Source: a virus (taxonomy: Duplodnaviria; Heunggongvirae; Uroviricota; Caudoviricetes). Taken from it: DNA of 40,804 nt. A model generated the notes under the pieces. The model was not told where the DNA came from. It was given only the letters and a program-made list of their open reading frames with translations, and did no database searches. A program made the position numbers and the translations under genes. How positions within the stretch are numbered: position 1 is the first letter of the stretch; the number at the start of each line of letters is the position of its first letter. This document shows positions 1 through 35,603 of the stretch, one piece after another. Where the stretch lies: positions 1-40,804 of the IMG/VR virus record IMGVR_UViG_2687453522_000003; one strand, written 5' to 3'.

Positions 1-981
1 TTAGAAAGGAATATCATCGTTCTTAACGGCATCATCAGAGATGAGAGCACCTGTTGGCAGAGGTACATTACTTACAGTATATAAATTAAGAATGTCTTCC
101 CGGTCCATAAATATTATCTGGCTTCTTTTGCTGGCATCAAGTTTCCCGCCCAGCCAGTTCCTCGCCTGTTTAGTAATTTCTCCGCCAGCAACGATAAAGG
201 CATGATCTACCAGCACCTTTCTATTTGTTTCTGGGTCAAATATTTCATGGCCAAGCATCATCAGTACCTGGTTGAAGATTTCTGCCACGTTTGAATTCGT
301 AGATTTGCTGGCACCGGACGCATCCAACTTACCTTTTTTTGCCTGAATGCCGAAATAAAGAACATGCTGAGTTGGCAGTGTGAACTTCATCCAGATGTCT
401 TTCCCGTATTCCAGCGCTTTATCTTTATGTCCCACTGCTGTTATCCGGTGAAAACCAAGTTGCCGGAATAAAGGAAGGAGAATATCTTCTATTAACTCAT
501 CTTCTGAGCAGGTATCAAGAAACGCGGTCAGTAACCTTCTGCATTCTACTTCGTGAGGCGTTAAGGGCCGATGAGGGTTATTACTGACTGAAACCGTTTT
601 GGTATCGGTATGGCGTATATACAAAAGGCGATCGTCACCATAGAATGCCTCATAGCCTTCCCGCATCAAAGGCTTGTTCAGTTCTTCAAGCGCCTTTAAT
701 CTTCCTGGATCGTCATCCATTGCATCTTCTTTTAACATTAAAGTTCTGAGCACATGAACAAACCTTTCCGGCAAAGTATGTGGCTTTGACTGTGGCTCAT
801 AAAGAAGTTCTTCAAGCCTCTGGGCCGTCCATTTCCACCGAGTGGATCCGTCATGAGTAACATCCATGCCGCAGTCCTGGAAAAATTCAGTGATGTGACT
901 GCTTGAACGATACAGAAATGCCTTATTATCTCCTATGATACATTCCGCGAGAGCCTTAAGGTTCTTGTCCTTAAATTTCAT
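1..981 (-). CDS. Hypothetical protein (326 aa), possible nuclease-like C-terminal region
   Basis: Complete ORF in track, stop codon at 1-3; no family recognised with certainty; segment GKDIWMKF...HVLYFGIQAKKGK loosely resembles a D...(E/Q)xK restriction-endonuclease-type motif (by eye only). Confidence 0.5.
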   Translation of the reverse strand: MKFKDKNLKALAECIIGDNKAFLYRSSSHITEFFQDCGMDVTHDGSTRWKWTAQRLEELLYEPQSKPHTLPERFVHVLRTLMLKEDAMDDDPGRLKALEELNKPLMREGYEAFYGDDRLLYIRHTDTKTVSVSNNPHRPLTPHEVECRRLLTAFLDTCSEDELIEDILLPLFRQLGFHRITAVGHKDKALEYGKDIWMKFTLPTQHVLYFGIQAKKGKLDASGASKSTNSNVAEIFNQVLMMLGHEIFDPETNRKVLVDHAFIVAGGEITKQARNWLGGKLDASKRSQIIFMDREDILNLYTVSNVPLPTGALISDDAVKNDDIPF

Positions 982-1739: not shown

Positions 1740-2954
1740 ATGTATATGTCGGTTTTTCATAACTGGCTGCTTGATATCGCAAGCGGGAATTACTTTATCT
1801 ACATCAAACGCCTTTCTGCAAACGACACAGGCGCAACAGGTGGCCATCAGGTCGGACTTTATATCCCCTCAAATATCGTTGAAAAGCTTTTTCCATCTAT
1901 CAATCATACTCGCGAACTGAACCCTTCAGTCTTCCTTACTGCGCATGTATCATCCCATGATTGCCCTGATACCCAAGCACGCGCAATTTATTACAACAAC
2001 CGTTATTTTGGTAAGACCCGAAACGAAAAAAGAATTACGCGCTGGGGGAGAGGAAGTCCATTACAGAACCCTGAAAATACAGGAGCCCTCACAATTCTTG
2101 CTTTCAGGTTAAACGAACAGAACACTGACTGTTCCGAGGTAGATATATGGGTCTGCGTCAATCCCGATGAAGAGGATCTCATCGAGTCTGCTATTGGCGA
2201 AATCATACCTGGAACCCTAATTTTCGGCCCAGCCGGACAAATTTTGGGCGGATTGTCTCTTCAGCAAACTCCAGTAAATCATAAATATGTTATTCCTGAA
2301 GACTGGAAGAAGCGTTTTCCTTCTGGAAACGAAATTATTCAATATGCTGCTGGCCATTATGCTAAAAACTCCAAGGATCCAGATGAGCAACTGATTGACC
2401 GTCGGCGTGTCGAGTATGATATTTTTCTACTCGTCGAGGAATTACATGTTCTTGATATTATTAAGAAAGGATTCGATTCTGTAGATGAGTTTATTGCATT
2501 AGCCAACTCTGTCAGTAATCGACGTAAATCAAGGGCAGGTAAATCACTTGAACTTCACCTAGAGAAGCTTTTTATCGAGCACGGACTACGGCATTTCTCC
2601 ACTCAGGCAGTTACTGAAGGTAATAAAAAACCAGATTTCCTGTTTCCTTCAGCAGAGGCATATCATAACGCTGAATTTCCTGTAGAAAACTTACGTATGC
2701 TGGCAGTAAAGACCACCTGCAAAGATCGCTGGCGTCAGATACTGAATGAAGCAGATAAAATCCATCAGGTACATTTATTTACACTGCAAGAAGGTGTTTC
2801 TTCAGCACAATACCGAGAAATGAAAGATGCGGGTGTCAGACTCGTTGTACCATCAACTTTACATAAAAAATACCCAGAAGCAGTTAGAGAAGAATTAATA
2901 ACGCTCGGAGCATTCATTACTGAGCTGATAGAACTTTACACTGAACTATCATAG
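1740..2954 (+). CDS. Type II restriction endonuclease, EcoRII-like (predicted CCWGG specificity)
   Basis: 404-aa ORF convergent with a Dcm/M.EcoRII-family methyltransferase; length and arrangement match the EcoRII system as I recall it; second ATG at 1746 has better spacing to the AAGGG ribosome-binding site. Confidence 0.7.
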   Translation: MYMSVFHNWLLDIASGNYFIYIKRLSANDTGATGGHQVGLYIPSNIVEKLFPSINHTRELNPSVFLTAHVSSHDCPDTQARAIYYNNRYFGKTRNEKRITRWGRGSPLQNPENTGALTILAFRLNEQNTDCSEVDIWVCVNPDEEDLIESAIGEIIPGTLIFGPAGQILGGLSLQQTPVNHKYVIPEDWKKRFPSGNEIIQYAAGHYAKNSKDPDEQLIDRRRVEYDIFLLVEELHVLDIIKKGFDSVDEFIALANSVSNRRKSRAGKSLELHLEKLFIEHGLRHFSTQAVTEGNKKPDFLFPSAEAYHNAEFPVENLRMLAVKTTCKDRWRQILNEADKIHQVHLFTLQEGVSSAQYREMKDAGVRLVVPSTLHKKYPEAVREELITLGAFITELIELYTELS

Positions 2955-2988: not shown

Positions 2989-4422
2989 TCAAGGCTGCCC
3001 AGTCTTACCAGCATCAGCAGAAACAGCTTTGAGGATATAGGGTTCCAGAAGTCTGGCAACGGCTTCAAATACTGGCACCACAACGGAGTTACCGAACTGC
3101 CGATATGACTGAGTATCTGAAACCGGAATACGGAATGGTTTCCCTCCAGGTTTTTCAAACCCCATAAGGCGTGCGCACTCTCGGGGAGTCAGCCTGCGTG
3201 GTCGACGAGCCTGGTTACTCTCATTCATAAAGTCAGCCTCTCCCGTTGCCATATCCCAACCACGATCAATAAGAATTTCTGATCCGTCTTTGTGATATCT
3301 GGCAGAAAGTGTGCGTGCAATGCTTTCCTTATTCTCAGGATTGACCAACCCAAAGCCAAAACCATTCCCCTTGGCTGCATGCTTTTTGGCGTAGTTATAA
3401 AGGTACTCCCATAGTTTTGGCGTAAGTATATATTTACTGTCGACTACAGGCTCCAGCAATTCACCAAATGATGGGCGGTGTTCCGGATAAAAACGACTGA
3501 TATCACGCAAGGTAAACCCCTTGTGAATATTCAGATCTCGTCTAAATCCGACCAGAACAATGCGTTCACGATGCTGAGGCAAAAAATGCTTCCCATCGAT
3601 AATCTTTGGATCGTTTTTTCCCATTTCTGCAGCATCGGCAACTTCGTAGCCCAGCTCGTCAAGGGTCTCCATAATGACTTTGAAAGTTTTACCCTTATCA
3701 TGGCTCTTCAGATTTTTGACATTTTCCAGCACAAAAATTGCCGGTTTTTTTGCTCGTATAATACGTGCCACGTCAAAAAAAAGTGTTCCTTGTGCTTCAC
3801 ATTCAAAACCATGCGCACGACCAAGTGAGTTTTTCTTACTAACACCAGCAAGGCTAAATGGCTGGCACGGGAACCCCGCAAGAAGCACATCATGATCCGG
3901 CACATGCTCATCAATATATGCATAAGCATCCGTTTCCAATATATCGGTTTTATCACTCAGCGTGACTTCCCGAATATCGAGATTGAATTTATGCACCTGT
4001 TCATCGTTAAACCAGTTGGCCTTGTATGTACGCACAGCATCTTTATTCCATTCACTGGTAAAAACACACTGGCCTCCAATGGCCTCAAAACCTTTCCGTA
4101 TCCCTCCAATTCCAGCAAATAAGTCAATGAAGCGGAAAGCATATTCCGGATGGTTTGCAGGTGGTTCTGGTAGCATCTTACGCAGAAGAGACTCTTCTAC
4201 TGAAGTCAACGATTTTGGTAAACACTTGCCATTAATCCAGCGGTTAATGGTTTCACGGCTCCACTCATTTCTTCCGACTTTTCTCAGTAATTCAGCCACA
4301 TACTTCTGATCATAGATTTCCAGCACTTTCTCGATAAGCTTTTTATCATTTTCCTGTCGCAGCTTTTCTTCCGCCTCGGCTTCCTTCAGCAGATGCTGTG
4401 CCAACACTTCAAATTCAGACAT
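2989..4422 (-). CDS. DNA-cytosine C5 methyltransferase, Dcm/M.EcoRII family
   Basis: Motifs FAGIGG (motif I), FPCQPFS (catalytic Cys), ENVKNL, QFGNSV; near-colinear with E. coli Dcm from memory; start set at internal ATG (MSEFEV...) preceded by GGAGGA, giving 477 aa; the track ORF extends to 4464. Confidence 0.9.
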
Positions 4423-4729
4423 AATTCCTCCAAGGGGTCTAATGGGTGAAACTTTATCACTCATTTAACCCAGAAGGAAATGTTTTATCTGGATATTTAA
4501 ACAGTGACTGCAACGTAATCTAGCACTGGTGATGCTTTGTTAGGCATAGAGAATCATTCTATATACGACTAATGACAGAAAAACAGCAGACAAGTAGTTT
4601 GTTCATAAATTAACGCATACTACGTGCCTACGGTTTTCGAGACCGGTCCAATCATCAAACGAAACATAAAATTAGCTCACATTATGAGGAAAAGTATCTT
4701 TTTTGTACTATGTAAATTCAAAGGCTTAG

Positions 4730-5551
<822 letters not shown>

Positions 5552-5619
5552 GAAAAAAAGGAGCTATGTCCCCGGTCCGTTACTCACCTAATTTTTGAGT
5601 CTTTAAGTGATAAGCATAA

Positions 5620-5662
5620 ACCGCAGCACGATCTTCTTGCATACGACGTGCTACGGTTTCAT
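5620..5662. repeat. Hairpin repeat copy B, immediately 3' of the invertase gene (probable invertase terminator)
   Basis: AAACCGCAGCACGATCTTCTTGCATACGACGTGCTACGGTTTCA; direct repeat of 1455..1492. Confidence 0.7.
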
Positions 5663-6213
5663 TTATCTCCGACCGGAAACTTCTTATACAGTGTCGATAT
5701 ACCAACATCATAGATGATCGCCACCTTCTGGCAAGGAACGCCTGATGCAATTAATCGTCCGGCCTGCTCCCATTGTTCTGGTGTAAGTTTGGGGCGACGT
5801 CCACCAATTCGTCCCTGTGCGCGAGCTGCTTCCAGTCCAGCTTTTGTTCGTTCAACAATCAGTTCACGCTCCATTTCAGCCAGGGCACCCATCACATGAA
5901 AGAAAAAGCGCCCCATTGGGGTACTGGTATCAATTGAATCCGTCAGACTACGAAAGTTGATGCCTCGTTCACGCAACTCCTCCAGCAGCACGACAAGATG
6001 CCGCATACTGCGCCCCAGTCGGTCCAGTTTCCAGACCACCAGCGTGTCACCTGCCGATAATGTCCTGAGCAGCTTTTTCAGTCCTGGTCTGTCGGACTTT
6101 GTACCGCTTATCTTGTCTTCAAAAATCAGCTCGCATCCTGCACAGTTCAACGCATTACGTTGTAGATCGGTGTTCTGGTCATTTGTTGATACGCGAACAT
6201 AGCCAATAAGCAT
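5659..6213 (-). CDS. Serine DNA invertase (Pin/Gin/Hin/Cin family)
   Basis: MLIGYVRVSTNDQ... catalytic-serine N-terminus and C-terminal HTH; start set at the internal ATG preceded by AGGAGG, giving 184 aa; lies next to the tail-fibre segment. Confidence 0.9.
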   Translation of the reverse strand: MLIGYVRVSTNDQNTDLQRNALNCAGCELIFEDKISGTKSDRPGLKKLLRTLSAGDTLVVWKLDRLGRSMRHLVVLLEELRERGINFRSLTDSIDTSTPMGRFFFHVMGALAEMERELIVERTKAGLEAARAQGRIGGRRPKLTPEQWEQAGRLIASGVPCQKVAIIYDVGISTLYKKFPVGDK

Positions 6214-6242
6214 GATAGCTCCTCCTGACAAAAACAGGAACG

Positions 6243-6749
6243 ATGCCATTTGCGCGCTATTTCTGCATTTTCATAAACGTTGGTTTGGGCGAAACGATAA
6301 ATAAAGCCTCCGGAGCTATGCAGAAATCGGCTAATGGAGCTGATATTTCTGATGTATCAGCCTTCCGAAATGCGCTCCAGTTAGGGACCGCCGCAACACG
6401 AGATGTTGGAGCAGATAATGCCTCGAAGTTACTGGGTTTAGACAGCTTCAGGTCAATGATGTCAGGGAATGGCTACATCTACATTCCATGCATTGCGACG
6501 ACAGGAAACCCGGTGAAACTTATGTTGCAGTGGGGAACGGTGGCAACACAAAAGGGAGCTGATGCTGGATATGCCTTACCATTTGCTTTTCCCTATGCAG
6601 GCTTATTTGCGACCGGAAACCGTGGAACATCTGGCTACAATGCCGCGATGAATGTGCGTATTGCCAGCAGAACGCATATCAGTATTCAGAACTGGTCGCC
6701 ATCCGGAGAGGGCACCGAAGATTGTTGTTTTATCGCGCTGGGGTATTAA
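6243..6749 (+). CDS. Alternative tail-fibre C-terminal (receptor-binding) segment, currently in the silent orientation
   Basis: Contains the LQLGTAATRDVG tail-fibre motif; no independent start context; would fuse to the fibre constant region after inversion. Confidence 0.6.
   Translation: MPFARYFCIFINVGLGETINKASGAMQKSANGADISDVSAFRNALQLGTAATRDVGADNASKLLGLDSFRSMMSGNGYIYIPCIATTGNPVKLMLQWGTVATQKGADAGYALPFAFPYAGLFATGNRGTSGYNAAMNVRIASRTHISIQNWSPSGEGTEDCCFIALGY
6268..6293. other. Candidate invertase crossover site (gix/pix-like), left end of invertible segment
   Basis: TTTTCATAAACGTTGGTTTGGGCGAA has the AAACnnnnGGTTT palindromic core of Gin/Hin-type sites (compared by eye with gix from memory); about 55 bp from the invertase start. 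Confidence 0.45.
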
Positions 6750-15846: not shown

Positions 15847-17342
15847 TATGCGGACTCCTCTGAATACTGAAGACGGAACTGGTTAACCACGGCAAAGACA
15901 CGCAACTGGTTAACATAGTCAGGCGGGAACAGCGTGTTCAGGCGGTTCGGATCGCTGGCATCACGCTCCAAAACCAGGTACTGCTTAAACAGTTCGTAAT
16001 TTTCCACGATCCCCGCTCGCTCAAGCTGACGGTAGGTTGCCAGCAGTTCCCCTTTGATCACCGCCGGGGTGACAATCGCCTGACCGGGACCAAAGCGGGT
16101 ACCGTCACTGGCAAGCTTGTGACGCCCGTACTTACTGGTAATGACGGATTTCAGTTTGCGCAGTACATACGCGCTGGTATGCAGCGTCTCGCTGTCGAGG
16201 TAGCTGTTATCCGCAACCCCGTAAGCGTTTTTCCTGTACGTGGTGACATCACGCTGAATGCGCAGTACCCCGCTTTCGACATACGCCGTTGCCACGCCAT
16301 GAGACAGCAGGGTCTGTTGTTCGGTCATCGTGAACCGTTTCCCCTTCGGCGCAGGCAGCATCCCCACCAGCTCACCGGTCTGCGTGGGACGTGCCGGATC
16401 GTTGCGAATAAACACCGCTGCGCGGGCGGTACGGCTTGCCGCCAGCTCATCGGCAGGCGTCTGGGTGTCTTTTTCGTACCCCGCCAGGGTAATGTGCTGC
16501 TGGTTAAACTGGTCACCTGCGGTCACCAGTTCTGACAGCGTGCCGATCTTTGCCGTATACACATGACCATACAGCTGACGCGCATAGCTCCAGCGACCGC
16601 TGGTATCGTTCATCTCGGTCACCAGCGTGTTAACGGAGGCCGTGTCGTTGAACGGCAGGCCGATATAATCAAACGGCTCATCCGCCATTGCAGCCACCGC
16701 GCCGGTGAGAACCGGAGCACCCGTTCCGGCGGTACCCGTCGCCACGGCAATCTGTACGCCCGCTGGCAGCACTTCGCCCCCACCAAAGCCGTAGTAATTG
16801 AGGCTGACAGGAATTTCATTCCCGCAAAGCCCCTTATGACGCGCGGTCAGTGTGACCACGCCTGCCGAAGATGAAGCCGTAAACGGCAGGGCCGGAACGG
16901 CATTGATGGCATCTTTGATACTGCTGGCAATCGTCGTGACGTTATCGCCGTTGGTCACCGGAGCCTGCACGCGGGTACGTCCCACATAGACATTCACCGT
17001 GCCGCTTTCGGTTGCTTCCCCGGTCACCGTCAGCGTAACCGTTGCCGCCGCGCCTGTGGCTTCCGGAACGGCAATCACATACAGCTCACCAAACGGGTCG
17101 GTCTGGCGATAAGCCTCGACCATACGCGCCAGCTGACTTCCCGCACCACAAATCTGGCGTGCATAGTCTGCCGACGGCATCAGCACCAGACTGTTGGCAA
17201 CAATCTCTGCACCGTTATTGGCATGACCAATCAGCAGCGATGCTCCGCTGTCCTGTGCAGTATTCGCAGCCTGGTTATCCATTTCCGCATAAAACAGCGG
17301 AACCAGCGTATTCGACGGAATGGTGTTAAAGCTTATCGTCAT
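15846..17342 (-). CDS. Tail sheath protein (Mu gpL-like)
   Basis: 498 aa, contractile-tail sheath position and composition. Confidence 0.85.
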   Translation of the reverse strand: MTISFNTIPSNTLVPLFYAEMDNQAANTAQDSGASLLIGHANNGAEIVANSLVLMPSADYARQICGAGSQLARMVEAYRQTDPFGELYVIAVPEATGAAATVTLTVTGEATESGTVNVYVGRTRVQAPVTNGDNVTTIASSIKDAINAVPALPFTASSSAGVVTLTARHKGLCGNEIPVSLNYYGFGGGEVLPAGVQIAVATGTAGTGAPVLTGAVAAMADEPFDYIGLPFNDTASVNTLVTEMNDTSGRWSYARQLYGHVYTAKIGTLSELVTAGDQFNQQHITLAGYEKDTQTPADELAASRTARAAVFIRNDPARPTQTGELVGMLPAPKGKRFTMTEQQTLLSHGVATAYVESGVLRIQRDVTTYRKNAYGVADNSYLDSETLHTSAYVLRKLKSVITSKYGRHKLASDGTRFGPGQAIVTPAVIKGELLATYRQLERAGIVENYELFKQYLVLERDASDPNRLNTLFPPDYVNQLRVFAVVNQFRLQYSEESA

Positions 17343-29388: not shown

Positions 29389-29410
29389 GCCGCATAGCGG
29401 CCATTTTTTT
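29387..29410. terminator. Bidirectional intrinsic terminator between the cassette and Q
   Basis: AGGCCGC-ATA-GCGGCC flanked by A-tract and T-tract on both sides. Confidence 0.7.
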
Positions 29411-29772
29411 CATGTTAACAAAATACTTAAACAGCCATCGATGAATCCCATTGCAGTCTGTAATTCTTTTCGGATGGTCCCATCAGAACACTTCTGCTTC
29501 TTTGCGATAGTTCTTAATGAGATGCCGATAATAAAATGAGCAATAACCAACTCATACTCTTCGGGCTTATATTTACGCAATCGCGCAACACAGCTGTCAA
29601 TCATGATTCCTTCATCATCATCGCATTGTTGGCGTGTTTTCTTTCCATGAGGTAGTAAACCTTTAAACCCTGCAGCAACAGGCTGCCAGTCCACACCACT
29701 GTTATCTGCTGCAGCCCATGCTCCCCAGCGGTCCAAAACTTCATACATATCACGCATCAACTTTCTCCACAA
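29410..29772 (-). CDS. Late-gene antiterminator Q (phage 21/82-type)
   Basis: MRDMYEVLDRWGAWAA ... GFKGL ... CDDDEG pattern matches the Q family as I recall it; position after the nin region. Confidence 0.7.
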   Translation of the reverse strand: MWRKLMRDMYEVLDRWGAWAAADNSGVDWQPVAAGFKGLLPHGKKTRQQCDDDEGIMIDSCVARLRKYKPEEYELVIAHFIIGISLRTIAKKQKCSDGTIRKELQTAMGFIDGCLSILLT

Positions 29773-29774
29773 AA

Positions 29775-30770
29775 TCAGGCCAGCACACCAATTGCCAGTG
29801 CACGATCGATAAAACGAAATATCAGCTCCAGCTGGGAGCCATACTTCTCTTCAAATGCCACGGTATCCGCATGCAGCTCGTCGTGATGCTTTCTGCACAA
29901 AGGCAACACAAAGAGGTCATGCGCTTTTGTACCCATTCCCCCCTGACCGTGGCCTATCAGGTGGTGGGGATCATCAGCAGGCTTTCCACAACATGCACAC
30001 AGCTGCGTCTTAACCCAGCGCGTGTACTTTTCATTAACCCAGCGGCGACGTTTTGGGCGTAACATAAAAGACTCCGGCGACTCCGGATCCACTTCCAGCG
30101 CCAGCACTTTTTTCGCTTTATCCTGGATGATGCTGGTGGCAGGAACCGAAGGCACAAGGTCACTTTCCCGGGTAACAGACGGCACAACAGGCTTCGGTAA
30201 TCTAAGTGCCTTACGGGCTGCACTTTCCGGTAAGGCATCCGCCAGGTCATTACAAATCAGCCACCAGCACAGTTCCGGCATTGTCACAACGTGACTGTCA
30301 TCAAAACCGAGATCCCGACGCACAACAGACAACACCCAGCGGGCACAGTTATCCGTTGCCATTGATTCCAGCCGTTCCGTGAACTGATCGCGCAGCTGGT
30401 TATCGCAGTGCCAGCACAGACGGATTGCACCCGGAGCGTGTCGCATTGTGGTCATGTTCTCGCTGTGCCAGTCGGAATGAGGCCACTGGCAGCCTTTTTC
30501 ACGAAGTAACCAGCTTTCAAGACATTCCACGCCACCAGCACGACGGATCACTGCCTCATTGCGGAACACGGCCCGAACGGCAGGATCATCCGCCAGCGGT
30601 TGTGATGCCGCCGGAACGGCACCACTGGCGAAAGATGAATAACGTTCCGGCTCAGGCTCCAGCAGGATACGCCCCTGCATAAACAGGGGCATCAGCTCTG
30701 AACCTGGTCTGAACAATACGATCCCCATACGCGGGGCAATTTCAGGGGTCAGTAGTGCTCTCACGGTCAC
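29775..30770 (-). CDS. DUF968-type nin-region protein with HNH-like Cys/His motif
   Basis: C-terminal CACCGKP...HHLIGHG...HD...LPLCRKHH; family assignment from memory. Confidence 0.6.
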   Translation of the reverse strand: MTVRALLTPEIAPRMGIVLFRPGSELMPLFMQGRILLEPEPERYSSFASGAVPAASQPLADDPAVRAVFRNEAVIRRAGGVECLESWLLREKGCQWPHSDWHSENMTTMRHAPGAIRLCWHCDNQLRDQFTERLESMATDNCARWVLSVVRRDLGFDDSHVVTMPELCWWLICNDLADALPESAARKALRLPKPVVPSVTRESDLVPSVPATSIIQDKAKKVLALEVDPESPESFMLRPKRRRWVNEKYTRWVKTQLCACCGKPADDPHHLIGHGQGGMGTKAHDLFVLPLCRKHHDELHADTVAFEEKYGSQLELIFRFIDRALAIGVLA

Positions 30771-30771
30771 C

Positions 30772-31581
30772 TCAATGTACGGTATCGAGCAGCTTTAACA
30801 GCTCAGGGAATCGGGATTCGAAGAAATGCGGCTGCGTCTCGCGCGGATTTGCGGGACTGGTGATGTTCTTGCCGAACATGCAGCCTTTCGCTGTCAGCGA
30901 CCAGAATTTTTTGATGTTGTTAATCGCGGTACGGCTGTATCGTTCGCGCTGCTCGACGATCCCCAGCTTCGCCATCTGGTGATATACCTGATTAGCTGTC
31001 AGGCGGATACCATACTGTTTCAGCAGTGCACTCAGCGACAGCGTAGGGCGACTTGAGCCATCAGGCGCGTCAGCAGGAGCATCAATGGCATAGCGTGGTG
31101 CCAGATTCGGTAAGCCAACAGCCTCCTGGAGTTTCTGACAGGCCCCAAGCACAGATGAGTTAGACAGGTTTAACTCCCGGCGCATAAAGTCCAGCAGAAT
31201 CACGCCAGCCTGCATCTTGTCAGCAGCCTGCCCGGATAATTTTTCCGGTACGCTGGTTACCATATCGAAAGTACGGATCACCTTCAGATGGAATGACGGG
31301 CTGATCCACATTGCATAGGCATACACCAGTTCTTTGCAGACATACGTCCCCTGGTTATTTCCGCCATTAATGACGCTAACTGGTTGATTTTGTTCCAGAG
31401 GCGGAATTCCACCCTCGGTGAAAAGTTGTTCAATCAATTCACAGGTTTGCTTATTGGAGAGCCAGTATTTCGGGCGGTTTTTTTGTTCTCCCCCGGCTGC
31501 CCTGTGCAGATCGTTCAGGCTGTAACGCCCATAAGCATCACGACGAACTTCAATACCATCAATGACCATCAGATTATTCAT
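30772..31581 (-). CDS. KilA-N domain antirepressor-like protein
   Basis: N-terminal region around YSLNDLH typical of KilA-N; Ant-like C-terminal half. Confidence 0.6.
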   Translation of the reverse strand: MNNLMVIDGIEVRRDAYGRYSLNDLHRAAGGEQKNRPKYWLSNKQTCELIEQLFTEGGIPPLEQNQPVSVINGGNNQGTYVCKELVYAYAMWISPSFHLKVIRTFDMVTSVPEKLSGQAADKMQAGVILLDFMRRELNLSNSSVLGACQKLQEAVGLPNLAPRYAIDAPADAPDGSSRPTLSLSALLKQYGIRLTANQVYHQMAKLGIVEQRERYSRTAINNIKKFWSLTAKGCMFGKNITSPANPRETQPHFFESRFPELLKLLDTVH

Positions 31582-31600: not shown

Positions 31601-31990
31601 TCAGGCGGCTGCACCCGCCGGTTTCTCATACTTACTGATAGTGATCTCGACCTTCCCTTTCTGGATAACCGGTCCCCACTCCACCAGCATTCTTTTCACC
31701 TGGCTGTCGTCTTCCCACACACCCGCGTGGGTCAGGGCGTCAAACAGCGCCTTGTTATAGTTGTCCAGATCGCGGATCCGGTTATCCGGAGGAAACAACA
31801 CGATCTCCACTGAAGCTGGTGCCGACGTTGGTTTCGGCAAACGACGTAACTGCTCAATGATGGCTGCACACGCTGCGCTCTGGAATTTTCGCCCCGCCGC
31901 GCTTATCAGGCTCTTACCTGCAAGCGCCCCTTTATTGGGGTGTCGCCAGTACGTGTTCACGCTGGGCGGAAAAGGCAGGATCAATTTCAT
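31601..31990 (-). CDS. rusA: Holliday junction resolvase RusA
   Basis: LPFPPSVNTYWR ... DLDNYNKALFDALT ... DDSQV motifs. Confidence 0.85.
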   Translation of the reverse strand: MKLILPFPPSVNTYWRHPNKGALAGKSLISAAGRKFQSAACAAIIEQLRRLPKPTSAPASVEIVLFPPDNRIRDLDNYNKALFDALTHAGVWEDDSQVKRMLVEWGPVIQKGKVEITISKYEKPAGAAA

Positions 31991-32313
31991 ACTTTCAGGC
32001 CCCTCTCATGTAACCAGTGGGCTGCACGCAGCCTGGCGTTTTCCTCACCGGCAAGCAGTGAGCGGATAATCCCGACCGCCTCGCTGTCGTCGTCCTTCAC
32101 CGCGGTATGAAGAGTGATACCCCGGGCCACGCCACGCTTTATCGTGATGACGCCTTTTTTCTCCAGTGCGCGGAGGTGCTCCACAGCTGCATTCACTGAA
32201 CGGTATCCCAGCATGGTTGCCACCTCCTGATTGGTTGGCGGAAAGCCACGCTCTTTCTGATAAGAAATCAGCATATCCAGCACCTGCTGCTGGCATTGAG
32301 TTAACGTCGTCAT
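31987..32313 (-). CDS. LexA N-terminal DNA-binding-domain-only protein
   Basis: LTQCQQQVLDMLISYQKERGFPPTNQEVATMLGYRSVNAAVEHLRALEKKGVI aligns with the E. coli LexA N-terminal domain; no S24 peptidase domain; start chosen at the ATG overlapping the upstream stop (TAATG). Confidence 0.7.
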   Translation of the reverse strand: MTTLTQCQQQVLDMLISYQKERGFPPTNQEVATMLGYRSVNAAVEHLRALEKKGVITIKRGVARGITLHTAVKDDDSEAVGIIRSLLAGEENARLRAAHWLHERGLKV

Positions 32314-32807
32314 TACGCCCCCACGTAATTCCCTGACAGATACCACTCTTCACCCGATGCAGCGCGCTTGCTGCTTTTCTGTAAGCACTGCTCACGACGC
32401 GCCAGAAAATTGTTTCGTTCTGGCTGGGAGTGGCTTTCACGGAATGCCGCCATCCACACGGTTGCAGCACGACGGTATAAGCCCCTTGACTCCAGTTCTT
32501 CAGCCTGGCGGGTCAGGCACAAAATCACCCGGGGCTCGTTAGTGCCGACATAGAAATTGCGCACAGGTCTGGTTTCACGAACTGGTTGTGGTTCCGGCTC
32601 CTGCGCTCTCTCAGTCAGGCGCGGGAAATGTCTGCGTGTATCTCCTTCACAACGGTGAGCCACACGCCCACTCTGACGTAACTTGCTTACAGACTGCAGA
32701 ACGCGCTGCCGTGAGTAACCTGCAAAAGCATCCGCAATGTCTCCGGAAGTACAGCCCGGATGGGCTTCAATGAATTTCTGAACGTCATTCAAAAGACTCA
32801 TGATCAC
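32313..32807 (-). CDS. Hypothetical protein with PerC/ANR-like motif
   Basis: AEELESRGLYRRAATVWMAAF resembles the PerC-family signature (from memory); sits where a helicase loader is normally found. Confidence 0.45.
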   Translation of the reverse strand: MIMSLLNDVQKFIEAHPGCTSGDIADAFAGYSRQRVLQSVSKLRQSGRVAHRCEGDTRRHFPRLTERAQEPEPQPVRETRPVRNFYVGTNEPRVILCLTRQAEELESRGLYRRAATVWMAAFRESHSQPERNNFLARREQCLQKSSKRAASGEEWYLSGNYVGA

Positions 32808-34093: not shown

Positions 34094-34698
34094 GCGTTAG
34101 TTTCTCCACAGTCACGACACGCCACGGCGCCCGGAGCTGCACACTCGCGGGCGTCATTACTTTCTGAAATGCAAAAGATTTTGTAGACCAGTGCTGCATG
34201 CTCCTGCAGCTTCGAAATTGAGAGATACAGCTCGTCGTTAATTGCTGTCTTCTCATGCGGTTCCACCACACCGTCTTCGATTGCCGAACGAATCTGTCTG
34301 GAATAACTGCCAATCTGTTCAATGACTTCCAGCAGGCGCTGGTTAATATCGGCGTTGTCCACATCCTCGACGTCAGGAAGAGACACAAAGACGCCATTTG
34401 CAGACTGCGCCACAGCGTCAGCAATGAAGTGAGTTCCACCAGCACGTTGCAAAATCATTGCCCATCCCAGCGGGAAAATCTGATCGCCATCGGCACGAAG
34501 GCGGTTAAATAATGCGTTTTCTGTTACATCCAGCCAGTCAGCTGCTTCAGCGTAACCACCCGGCAACGCTGCGATAGTTTTTCTGACAGCTTTCACGTAC
34601 CACTCAGGCTGTTTTTCTACTTTCCAGTGATGCTTACCCACGGTTAGCCTCATCGTTCTGTGGTTTCTGTTAATCGATTTATCCATTAGATTTTTCAT
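34090..34698 (-). CDS. CII-like / YdaT-type regulatory protein (by position)
   Basis: Immediately downstream of cro; start ambiguous (34698, 34686 or 34653); track ORF extends to 34755. Confidence 0.4.
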
Positions 34699-34891: not shown

Positions 34892-34954
34892 CTAAGTTTT
34901 ATTAGATGCTAATTACAAATCTATCTTTGGTCAATAAAAACTAAGATTACTTAG
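34892..34954. promoter_or_regulatory. OR-type operator region between cro and cI
   Basis: Two 14-bp sites CTAAGTTTTATTAG (34892..34905) and CTAAGATTACTTAG (34941..34954). Confidence 0.55.
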
Positions 34955-34976: not shown

Positions 34977-35603
34977 ATGGAAACGGTTGGTCAGCGTATA
35001 AAAGCTCTGAGAAGAGTTACCGGAACGTCCCAGAAAGAATTGGGTAAATTTTGTGGAGTAAGCGACGTTGCTGTGGGGTACTGGGAGAAAGACATCAATA
35101 CCCCTGGTGGGGAGGCACTTTCGAAATTAGCGAAGTTCTTCAATACGTCAATAGATTACATTCTTTATGGTGCTGAGTTTGAAGGCAAACTCGTCACAAA
35201 CATGCGCAGAGTTCCTGTAATATCGTGGGTTCAGGCTGGGCAGTTTACTGAGTGCAGGGCAGCAGAAGTGTTTAGTGAAGTGGACAAGTGGGTAGATACA
35301 TCATTAAAGATTGGTGATAACTCATTTGCATTAGAGGTTAAAGGTGACTCCATGACTAACCCTAATGGCCTCCCAACAATACCAGAAGGCGCAACAGTGA
35401 TTGTAGATCCAGATGCAGAACCTCGTCATGGAAAAATAGTCATCGCTCGACTTGATGGAACAAACGAAGCTACAGTAAAAAAATTAGTCATCGATGGCCC
35501 TCAAAAGTTTTTAGTGCCATTAAATCCTCGGTATCCCAACATCCCTATCAATGGTAATTGCCTTATCATTGGTGTAGTCAAAGGAGTTCAATACGAACTC
35601 TAA
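34977..35603 (+). CDS. cI: CI-type repressor (HTH plus S24 LexA-like peptidase domain)
   Basis: N-terminal HTH, Ala-Gly (QAGQ) cleavage site, GDSM serine and downstream KK. Confidence 0.85.
   Translation: METVGQRIKALRRVTGTSQKELGKFCGVSDVAVGYWEKDINTPGGEALSKLAKFFNTSIDYILYGAEFEGKLVTNMRRVPVISWVQAGQFTECRAAEVFSEVDKWVDTSLKIGDNSFALEVKGDSMTNPNGLPTIPEGATVIVDPDAEPRHGKIVIARLDGTNEATVKKLVIDGPQKFLVPLNPRYPNIPINGNCLIIGVVKGVQYEL

Follow-up and report, generated by a model that had tools for sequence, protein, structure and literature searches.

A stand-alone LexA DNA-binding domain in the early-right operon of an SfV-like Escherichia coli prophage, a candidate repressor that activated RecA cannot inactivate

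The window analysed here, the whole 40,804-nucleotide stretch of the viral record IMGVR_UViG_2687453522_000003, is a lambdoid E. coli prophage of SfV-like type that has integrated at tRNA-Thr beside proA. Its early-right operon, on the minus strand, includes an open reading frame (ORF) of 108 codons, with its ATG at 32313 and its TGA at 31989..31987, whose product (MTTLTQCQQQVLDMLISYQKERGFPPTNQEVATMLGYRSVNAAVEHLRALEKKGVITIKRGVARGITLHTAVKDDDSEAVGIIRSLLAGEENARLRAAHWLHERGLKV) is a stand-alone LexA DNA-binding domain (LexA-DBD) and a member of the phage family phrog_362. The original prediction gave the correct limits for this gene, leaving unsaid that it lies on the minus strand. The operon runs in the order cro, a CII-like gene, a DUF4222 gene, an O-like initiator, a PerC-like gene, the LexA-DBD gene, rusA, a KilA-N gene, a DUF968 gene and the antiterminator gene Q. 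The coordinates of the features discussed are collected in Table 1.

The LexA_DNA_bind model of Pfam (PF01726) is matched over its full length (65/65 positions) by residues 1–65 of the protein, with E = 2.9e-19 and a score of 69 bits against a cutoff of 23.7. Residues 1–69 align with E. coli LexA at about 51% identity and free of insertions and deletions; the BLASTP alignment, covering residues 1–90, gives 43% identity. The segment GFPPTNQEVATMLGYRSVNAAVEHLRALEKKGVI, which had been singled out as LexA-like, is present and aligned with its LexA counterpart. Two AlphaFold models have mean predicted local distance difference test (pLDDT) scores of 78 and 85, and the nearest solved structures are those of E. 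coli LexA (1lea, 1jhh and 3jso; E of about 1e-15). The first model fits LexA from the LexA–DNA complex 3jso to 1.5 Å over 66–67 residues of 51–52% identity, and the root mean square deviations reported by Foldseek are 1.5–1.7 Å for 1lea and 3jso. The modelled secondary structure consists of helices 6–22, 28–35 and 40–52 and strands 56–58 and 66–68, with pLDDT values of about 88–90. This is the winged-helix fold of the LexA N-terminal domain (1lea, 3jso), with which the phage protein has Ser39, Asn41, Ala42 and Glu45 in common, so that the alignment with the LexA winged helix on which the original prediction was founded is borne out. As for other winged-helix families (MarR, Rrf2 and Crp-like), the sole match was to HTH_Crp_2, below threshold at 18.9 bits against a cutoff of 27, and these families were rejected.

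Unlike E. coli LexA, the phage protein has no S24/dimerisation domain. It has a two-helix tail of its own, and its gene lies in a phage nin region. The Pfam scan gave no Peptidase_S24 match in the 108 residues, and BLASTP found no similarity to the catalytic region of LexA and nothing beyond LexA residue 86, in agreement with the prediction; as the chain stops at residue 108, it has no counterpart of the Ser119/Lys156 dyad. The lexA equivalog model TIGR00498 is matched at positions 1–91 of 203 only, and the score of 70.8 is below its cutoff of 110.95. In the HMMER and BLASTP alignments, Ala88-Gly89 of the window allele lies opposite Ala84-Gly85 of LexA. We rejected this pair as a retained cleavage site because it is poorly conserved: close relatives vary to N or V (LLANEE, LLVGEE), and distant members lack it. 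The segment is predicted to be helical, not an extended cleavage loop. With neither the S24 domain nor a conserved Ala-Gly cleavage site, the protein falls outside LexA proper. LexA dimerisation, self-cleavage and the interface with activated RecA (RecA*) are all located in the C-terminal domain (PMC3159453), and since the phage protein has no S24 domain, activated RecA would be unable to inactivate it. The cI repressor of the same prophage does retain both an Ala-Gly site and an S24 domain, as had been claimed.

Beyond the winged helix, the chain continues through a linker (residues 71–74, pLDDT below 50, disordered) into two amphipathic helices modelled with pLDDT values of about 90. Ala97 and Leu101 of this tail are invariant, and Leu86 nearly so, in relatives down to 39% identity. 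Structure comparison of the AlphaFold model found no specific structural match for the two-helix tail, which is a candidate dimerisation or partner-binding module in the place of the S24 domain. Proteins with two tandem LexA DNA-binding domains, in whose sequences an S24 region is not evident, were also encountered (P0128, P0129, P0138 and P0141); these could be covalent dimers and would represent a further use of the LexA domain apart from its protease.

The DNA-contacting residues of LexA helix III are Ser39, Asn41, Ala42, Glu44 and Glu45 (PMC3091678, PMC13416735). Four of these five are kept in the phage protein, Glu44 being replaced by Val; Pro40 of LexA is also Val in the window protein. 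The residues of the domain that are invariant throughout the family are L4, Q8, V11, P26, E30, S39, L50, K53, G54, I56, G61, R64, G65 and I66, and N41 is nearly invariant. On its own, the LexA N-terminal domain still binds SOS boxes and represses to some extent, which is why cells need ClpXP to degrade it (PMC10584840). That the LexA-DBD protein binds SOS boxes as a non-cleavable repressor, as originally proposed, is plausible on these residue comparisons.

The gene is embedded in its operon by overlapping codons at both ends. The TAA of the PerC-like gene overlaps its ATG (TAATG at 32311..32315), confirming the overlap that had been described, and the rusA ATG overlaps its TGA (ATGA at 31987..31990). 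Transcription through the gene probably starts at a pR-like promoter between cI and cro. As the interval from this promoter to the LexA-DBD gene has no predicted minus-strand terminator, the gene is likely to be transcribed along with the early lytic genes, and the proposed coupling within the early-right (replication/nin) operon is supported. The start of the gene overlaps the upstream stop in all six junctions aligned, whichever gene lies upstream. At the junction with the PerC-like gene, an inverted repeat in the minus-strand mRNA, ATTACG-N6-CGTAAT, covers the ribosome-binding site together with the PerC stop and the LexA-DBD start. The hairpin predicted from it is marginal (z = −2, with 7 of 200 shuffles folding as well or better) and is absent from the other junctions; it may tighten translational coupling.

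Table 1. Positions of features in the window and of SOS boxes and neighbouring genes in related loci
Feature	Sequence	Position	Strand	Basis or remark
Stand-alone LexA-DBD gene, phrog_362 member (homologs SfV orf42 and mEp460 'LexA DNA binding domain protein')	window	31987..32313	-	ORF, Pfam, PHROG, PGAP, pN/pS
LexA-type winged helix-turn-helix, residues 1–69	window	32107..32313	-	AlphaFold, Foldseek, pN/pS 0.01
Recognition helix, residues 39–52, SVNAAVEHLRALEK	window	32158..32199	-	translation; contact residues from PMC3091678, PMC13416735
Linker 71–74 and amphipathic helices 75–88 and 93–102 (residues 70–108)	window	31990..32106	-	translation, AlphaFold, conservation
PerC/YfdN-like gene, 164 residues, upstream neighbour	window	32313..32807	-	PF06069 PerC, E = 6.7e-9
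Inverted repeat at PerC/LexA-DBD junction	window	32312..32329	-	
rusA, Holliday-junction resolvase, downstream neighbour	window	31601..31990	-	PF05866
KilA-N protein	window	30772..31581	-	Pfam
DUF968/HNH-like protein	window	29775..30770	-	Pfam
Antiterminator Q	window	29410..29772	-	Pfam
pR-like promoter, TTGACC-17-TAGCAT	window	34906..34934	-	consensus scan
cI repressor	window	34977..35603	+	HTH_3 and Peptidase_S24 (E = 9e-28); VQAG motif at Ala87-Gly88
SOS-box-like site, ATCTGGATATTTAAACAGTG	window	4487..4506		weight matrix score 18.6; maximum in 200 shuffles 18.1
ORF of 326 residues, reaching the first base of the window, so that the gene may extend beyond	window	1..981	-	no Pfam match
LEM-3-like GIY-YIG nuclease-domain protein, prophage cargo	window	4775..5551	+	
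Pin/Gin-type invertase, beside tail-fibre genes	window	5659..6249	-	
SOS box inside cI	mEp460 (L007)	31970..31989		
SOS box inside cI	Stx2a_1447 (L008)	6408..6427		
SOS box inside cI	L115	836..855		
SOS box inside cI	L089	5103		
SOS box inside cI	L091	1865		
SOS box at late methylase	SfV (L006)	34170..34189		
SOS box at late methylase	mEp460 (L007)	41021..41040		
SOS box at late methylase	Stx2a_1447 (L008)	15934..15953		
SOS box at late methylase	phiP27 (L113)	16067..16086		
SOS box at late methylase	L111	8739..8758		
SOS box at KilA-N promoter	L057	974..993		
SOS box at KilA-N promoter	L074, L077, L084	10765..10784		
SOS box at KilA-N promoter	L076	3755..3774		
SOS box at operon head	L114 (Klebsiella)	513..532		
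SOS box at operon head	L108 (Enterobacter/Cedecea type)	5560..5579		
SOS box at operon head	L111 (Salmonella)	5561..5580		
AcrVA2-like protein beside a solo Cas1-like gene	L111	9794..11390		late region of a Salmonella prophage with a family member
Bacterial RNase-A-like toxin gene and adjacent faint CdiI_2-type immunity match	L108	3863..5232		opposite strand

The position of the gene is conserved, too. In the contexts examined, an optional methyltransferase (Dam, C5 or fused) is followed by the LexA-DBD gene, RusA, an optional KilA-N/Ant gene, DUF968 and Q; the same order of the downstream block recurs in divergent loci, and relatives down to about 40% identity hold their position upstream of RusA, DUF968 and Q. 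In a Klebsiella locus (L114), the LexA-DBD gene is kept without RusA and is followed by DUF968 and Q, and in the locus L002 it comes directly after the replication initiator. The homologs in SfV (orf42), mEp460 (gp46), the cdtI phage and Stx2a and Stx2c phages belong to the same family and occupy the same slot, between Dam or PerC on one side and RusA on the other. Compared with the PHROG 362 homologs, the window has PerC, not Dam, as its upstream neighbour and shows otherwise no substantive difference.

Among 52 distinct alleles, the ratio of non-synonymous to synonymous polymorphism (pN/pS) is 0.05 for the whole gene, 0.01 for the DNA-binding domain and 0.15 for the tail. An exhaustive profile search showed that relatives of 39–49% identity keep both domain and tail; the distant relatives that have a source name all come from Enterobacterales (Cronobacter, Kosakonia, Enterobacter, Cedecea, Klebsiella and Salmonella). 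Of 5426 complete E. coli genomes, 2232 (41%) have the gene in intact form, with up to four copies per genome; it also occurs in at least 576 IMG/VR contigs and, at 95–99% nucleotide identity, in 50 phage records. Carriers include SfV (where orf42 is annotated as 'unknown'), SfII, SfIV, mEp460, the cdtI phage and Stx2a- and Stx2c-converting phages, and tblastn shows 100% protein identity in several phage records, Stx2a_1447 and 1720a-02 among them. A scan of a genome collection with close alignment returned mostly genuine lexA genes, and many unrelated phages are also annotated with stand-alone LexA-DBD proteins of 65–150 residues.

The gene has thus already been catalogued, and our finding matches the existing annotation of a very common prophage gene. 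The full length of the protein matches phrog_362 ('transcriptional repressor'; E = 1.4e-59, residues 1–108 on profile positions 1–106 of 106), and a 100% identical E. coli locus is WP_000210164.1 in RefSeq, named 'LexA family transcriptional regulator' by PGAP. Public records also label the protein as 'SOS-response repressor and protease LexA', 'RecA-mediated autopeptidases', 'LexA repressor' and 'Rrf2 family transcriptional regulator'; of these names, those that imply a protease or an Rrf2 regulator are mistaken, since the protein has the DNA-binding domain only. Overall, the sequence comparisons leave it well supported that the gene encodes a selected, RecA-insensitive DNA-binding protein of LexA origin.

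To survey SOS boxes around close relatives, we scored 80 viral loci carrying a 99–100% identical gene (1.28 Mb) with a position weight matrix (PWM) built from 21 E. coli operators, a score of at least 16 defining a strong box. There are 61 strong boxes in 47 of the 80 loci; about one or two would be expected by chance in 1.28 Mb, as estimated from shuffles. One class lies inside the 5′ third of cI. These boxes score 24–28, occur in cI genes of the S24 type from at least two allele groups and lie, where checked, about 165–230 nt from the start codon; that of mEp460 is TACTGTTTTTACATACAGTA, and no convincing promoter was found around it. Our literature search found no paper describing SOS boxes inside the cI coding sequence. 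A second class lies at or overlapping the annotated start of a late-region DNA methylase downstream of Q (TACTGTAAAAATAAACAGTG in SfV), and in the Stx phages this box is just upstream of tRNAs and stx. In five loci, a third class provides the KilA-N gene directly after rusA with an SOS-box promoter, TACTGTATTTATGAACAGTG being about 100 nt upstream; the KilA-N gene of the window starts 19 nt after rusA and has no such box.

In three divergent subfamilies (L108, L111 and L114), the promoter at the head of the operon containing the LexA-DBD gene has its −10/+1 region covered by a canonical, near-perfect SOS box. Such operons run in the order optional dinI (the first gene in L114), a conserved ORF of 75–82 residues, LexA-DBD, an optional conserved ORF of 67 residues and optional RusA, DUF968 and Q, an arrangement which suggests direct control by LexA of a gene block to which the late antiterminator belongs. 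Two of these loci also carry other genes of note (Table 1); the toxin insertion of L108 is in the nin region and immediately precedes the SOS-box promoter. As to co-occurrence, all 13 records with full-length matches to the box-bearing type of cI also carry the LexA-DBD gene, as do all the records listed (at least 25 of 29) for the SfV-type methylase allele. A second methylase allele is found in 22 records, mostly phages without the LexA-DBD gene, and has the box in phiP27, the one checked. The SOS boxes link the LexA-DBD family to SOS circuitry without identifying the phage protein as what binds them.

We consider the most plausible function of the LexA-DBD protein to be that of a repressor which DNA damage is unable to turn off. 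Its specific role would be that of a RecA-proof LexA surrogate that closes SOS-type operators again after the destruction of host LexA, a reading to which we assign a probability of roughly 0.4. Re-repression of SOS boxes is the best-supported specific mechanism because the contact residues are kept, because the LexA N-terminal fragment sets a precedent and because the context is rich in SOS boxes. The protein would be made with the early-right genes upon prophage derepression or infection and, in some other lineages, from the SOS-box promoter of its own operon. It would comprise the LexA winged helix (1–69), a flexible linker and, where LexA has its protease and dimerisation domain, the two-helix tail (75–102), through which two copies would pair, and the pair would occupy SOS-type operators (CTGT-containing palindromes). 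Repression would in this way be restored at host SOS genes and at prophage SOS-box promoters once host LexA is gone.

The closest natural parallel is the LexA(1–84) fragment, likewise a DNA-binding domain on its own that retains some SOS-box binding and repression (PMC10584840). This fragment is rapidly degraded by way of ClpX signals that cleavage exposes (PMC3159453, PMC10584840), whereas the phage protein ends in ...ERGLKV after a predicted folded tail; it would therefore not expose a ClpX-targeted terminus of the kind that marks the natural fragment for degradation. The LexA co-repressor gp7 of the Bacillus phage GIL01 is likewise reported to maintain repression at SOS-box promoters and to make that repression resistant to RecA (PMC4551915). 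It is reported to do so by binding host LexA, which it protects from cleavage and whose binding to DNA it strengthens (PMC4551915), whereas the LexA-DBD protein would bind DNA itself. The Listeria phage protein AriS, encoded in an early-lytic module, lowers SOS gene expression and so resembles the role proposed here, but its action depends on an ANT/KilAC domain and is probably directed at RecA, and its sequence is unrelated (PMC9043618). Finally, the Gifsy-type LexA-controlled antirepressors have SOS-box prophage promoters, as does the KilA-N gene in five related loci (PMC3121763); this likeness concerns a possible target, not the LexA-DBD protein.

A number of observations weigh against the surrogate reading, beginning with the window itself. 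The search for LexA boxes suggested in the original prediction found no exact CTGT-N8-ACAG in the window; sites with one mismatch number 22 against 13 expected, which is not significant. Neither the exact search nor the PWM revealed an SOS box in the regulatory regions of the prophage. Neither the window nor the E. coli clade has one upstream of the LexA-DBD gene, so that the autoregulation typical of lexA has no counterpart here. Only one good SOS-box-like site occurs in the window, about 20 bp upstream of a cargo gene for an EcoRII-type cytosine methylase (DNA_meth_N domain). LexA may bind there, or the methylase itself may use the site as its operator, and the site is also a possible target of the LexA-DBD protein. 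The methylase belongs to an EcoRII-type restriction–modification pair at the distal end of the prophage, comprising a C5 methylase and an EcoRII-N/EcoRII-C endonuclease (genes at 2989..4464 on the minus strand and 1740..2954 on the plus strand).

The relatives raise further doubts of the same kind. No strong box is within reach in 33 of the 80 loci with a 99–100% identical gene, and the boxes that do occur are perfect host-LexA sites. They accompany both LexA-like and divergent recognition helices and may for this reason be targets of host LexA only. The late-methylase box is also present in phiP27, a phage absent from the tblastn matches to the LexA-DBD protein, and we treat the co-occurrence of box and gene as linkage because the elements lie within about 5 kb of the gene. 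Glu44 is replaced in every member of the family, in which position 44 is never acidic, and positions 42–46 diverge between subfamilies (SVNAAVEH, SQNTVFIH, SSNAVLLH, SPNAAATV and SPNAATDM). The Enterobacterales hosts of all these subfamilies are expected to share one LexA and one SOS box. Moreover, we infer pairing through the tail from a model of the monomer, and our literature search found no functional or experimental study of the LexA-DBD family.

Several of these points would suit the main rival explanation, a sequence-specific regulator with a non-SOS phage operator of its own, in which a borrowed LexA fold has drifted in specificity, as in immunity repressors, and times nin, Q or late expression. 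The loss of the acidic residue at position 44, the strong variability of positions 42–46 between the Enterobacterales subfamilies and the lack of an SOS box in the regulatory regions of the window prophage are all expected on this explanation, and so is the replacement of Pro40 by Val, since Pro40 is among the positions altered in altered-specificity LexA mutants. We hold it to be possible but doubtful. The E. coli clade keeps four of the five LexA contacts under very strong constraint, and an unbiased search for palindromes (5-mer arms, spacing 2–12) found none that recurs three or more times in the prophage. One spacing, CTGT-N19-ACAG, is in excess, with five sites (at 51, 26841, 31015, 37177 and 38793) against 0.5 expected (z = 7), and more weakly so in SfV and Stx2a_1447. 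It was rejected as an operator, as the sites are mostly scattered in coding sequence, have no common interior and are shared between phages only through gene homology; the excess probably arises from chance or codon bias. An unlikely explanation is that the protein is a DNA-binding accessory of the genes coupled to it, the upstream orphan methyltransferase, RusA or the DUF968 HNH-like nuclease, and modulates recombination, replication or methylation, not transcription. In all the contexts examined, its gene is placed just upstream of RusA and/or DUF968, then Q; often the gene shows translational coupling to an upstream Dam, C5 or fused methyltransferase, and in L002 it directly follows the replication initiator. 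Yet overlapping start and stop codons are usual in compact nin regions and need not imply physical partnership, the upstream partner varies (PerC, Dam, C5 methylase, replication protein or small ORF), and L114 dispenses with RusA altogether. RusA, for its part, acts without a specificity subunit, and many phages have RusA without a LexA-DBD gene.

Two further explanations fare worse. LexA-type proteases can cleave substrates in trans, and the LexA alignments run through the linker (..LLAGE against ..VAAGE), so that the protein might be imagined as a decoy titrating LexA, RecA* or the protease, for example through Ala88-Gly89. This is very improbable, as was the suggestion in the original prediction that it titrates LexA: the C-terminal domain that holds dimerisation, catalysis and the RecA* interface is missing (PMC3159453), and the Ala-Gly pair, as described above, is unconserved and modelled as helix. 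That the gene is a decaying, functionless remnant of a captured lexA has least of all to commend it. The protein does resemble a truncated LexA, and frameshifted copies exist in several public records (P0024, P0030), but the selection data rule out a dead gene: the low pN/pS of the 52 alleles goes with intact copies in two-fifths of the complete E. coli genomes, and the family, tail included, is conserved down to 39% identity at a fixed genomic position.

Returning to the surrogate reading, its consequences can be sketched tentatively. Phages might use the protein as a LexA stand-in after cleavage of host LexA, re-closing the SOS boxes of the host and of co-resident prophages, so that the SOS response becomes a pulse and the induction of competitors is suppressed; we offer this as speculation. 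Equally conjectural are the targets that could be named for such a stand-in, namely LexA-controlled antirepressors, dinI-like genes and the boxes inside cI and at the late methylases beside stx. What our analysis adds to the existing database annotation is a clear hypothesis, which could be tested at little cost and is possibly relevant to Stx phages. The LexA-DBD gene is among the most common prophage genes of E. coli and is carried by Shiga-toxin phages. Should its product bind an operator of its own instead, it would be one more small phage regulator. If it is an uncleavable LexA surrogate, phages could shut down the SOS response from inside the induced cell, which could bear on the kinetics of induction, the release of Stx, the interference of prophages with one another and the mutagenesis that antibiotics induce; through its presence in 41% of complete E. 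coli genomes and in Stx2a and Stx2c phages, it could then shape Shiga-toxin release and SOS-dependent mutagenesis.

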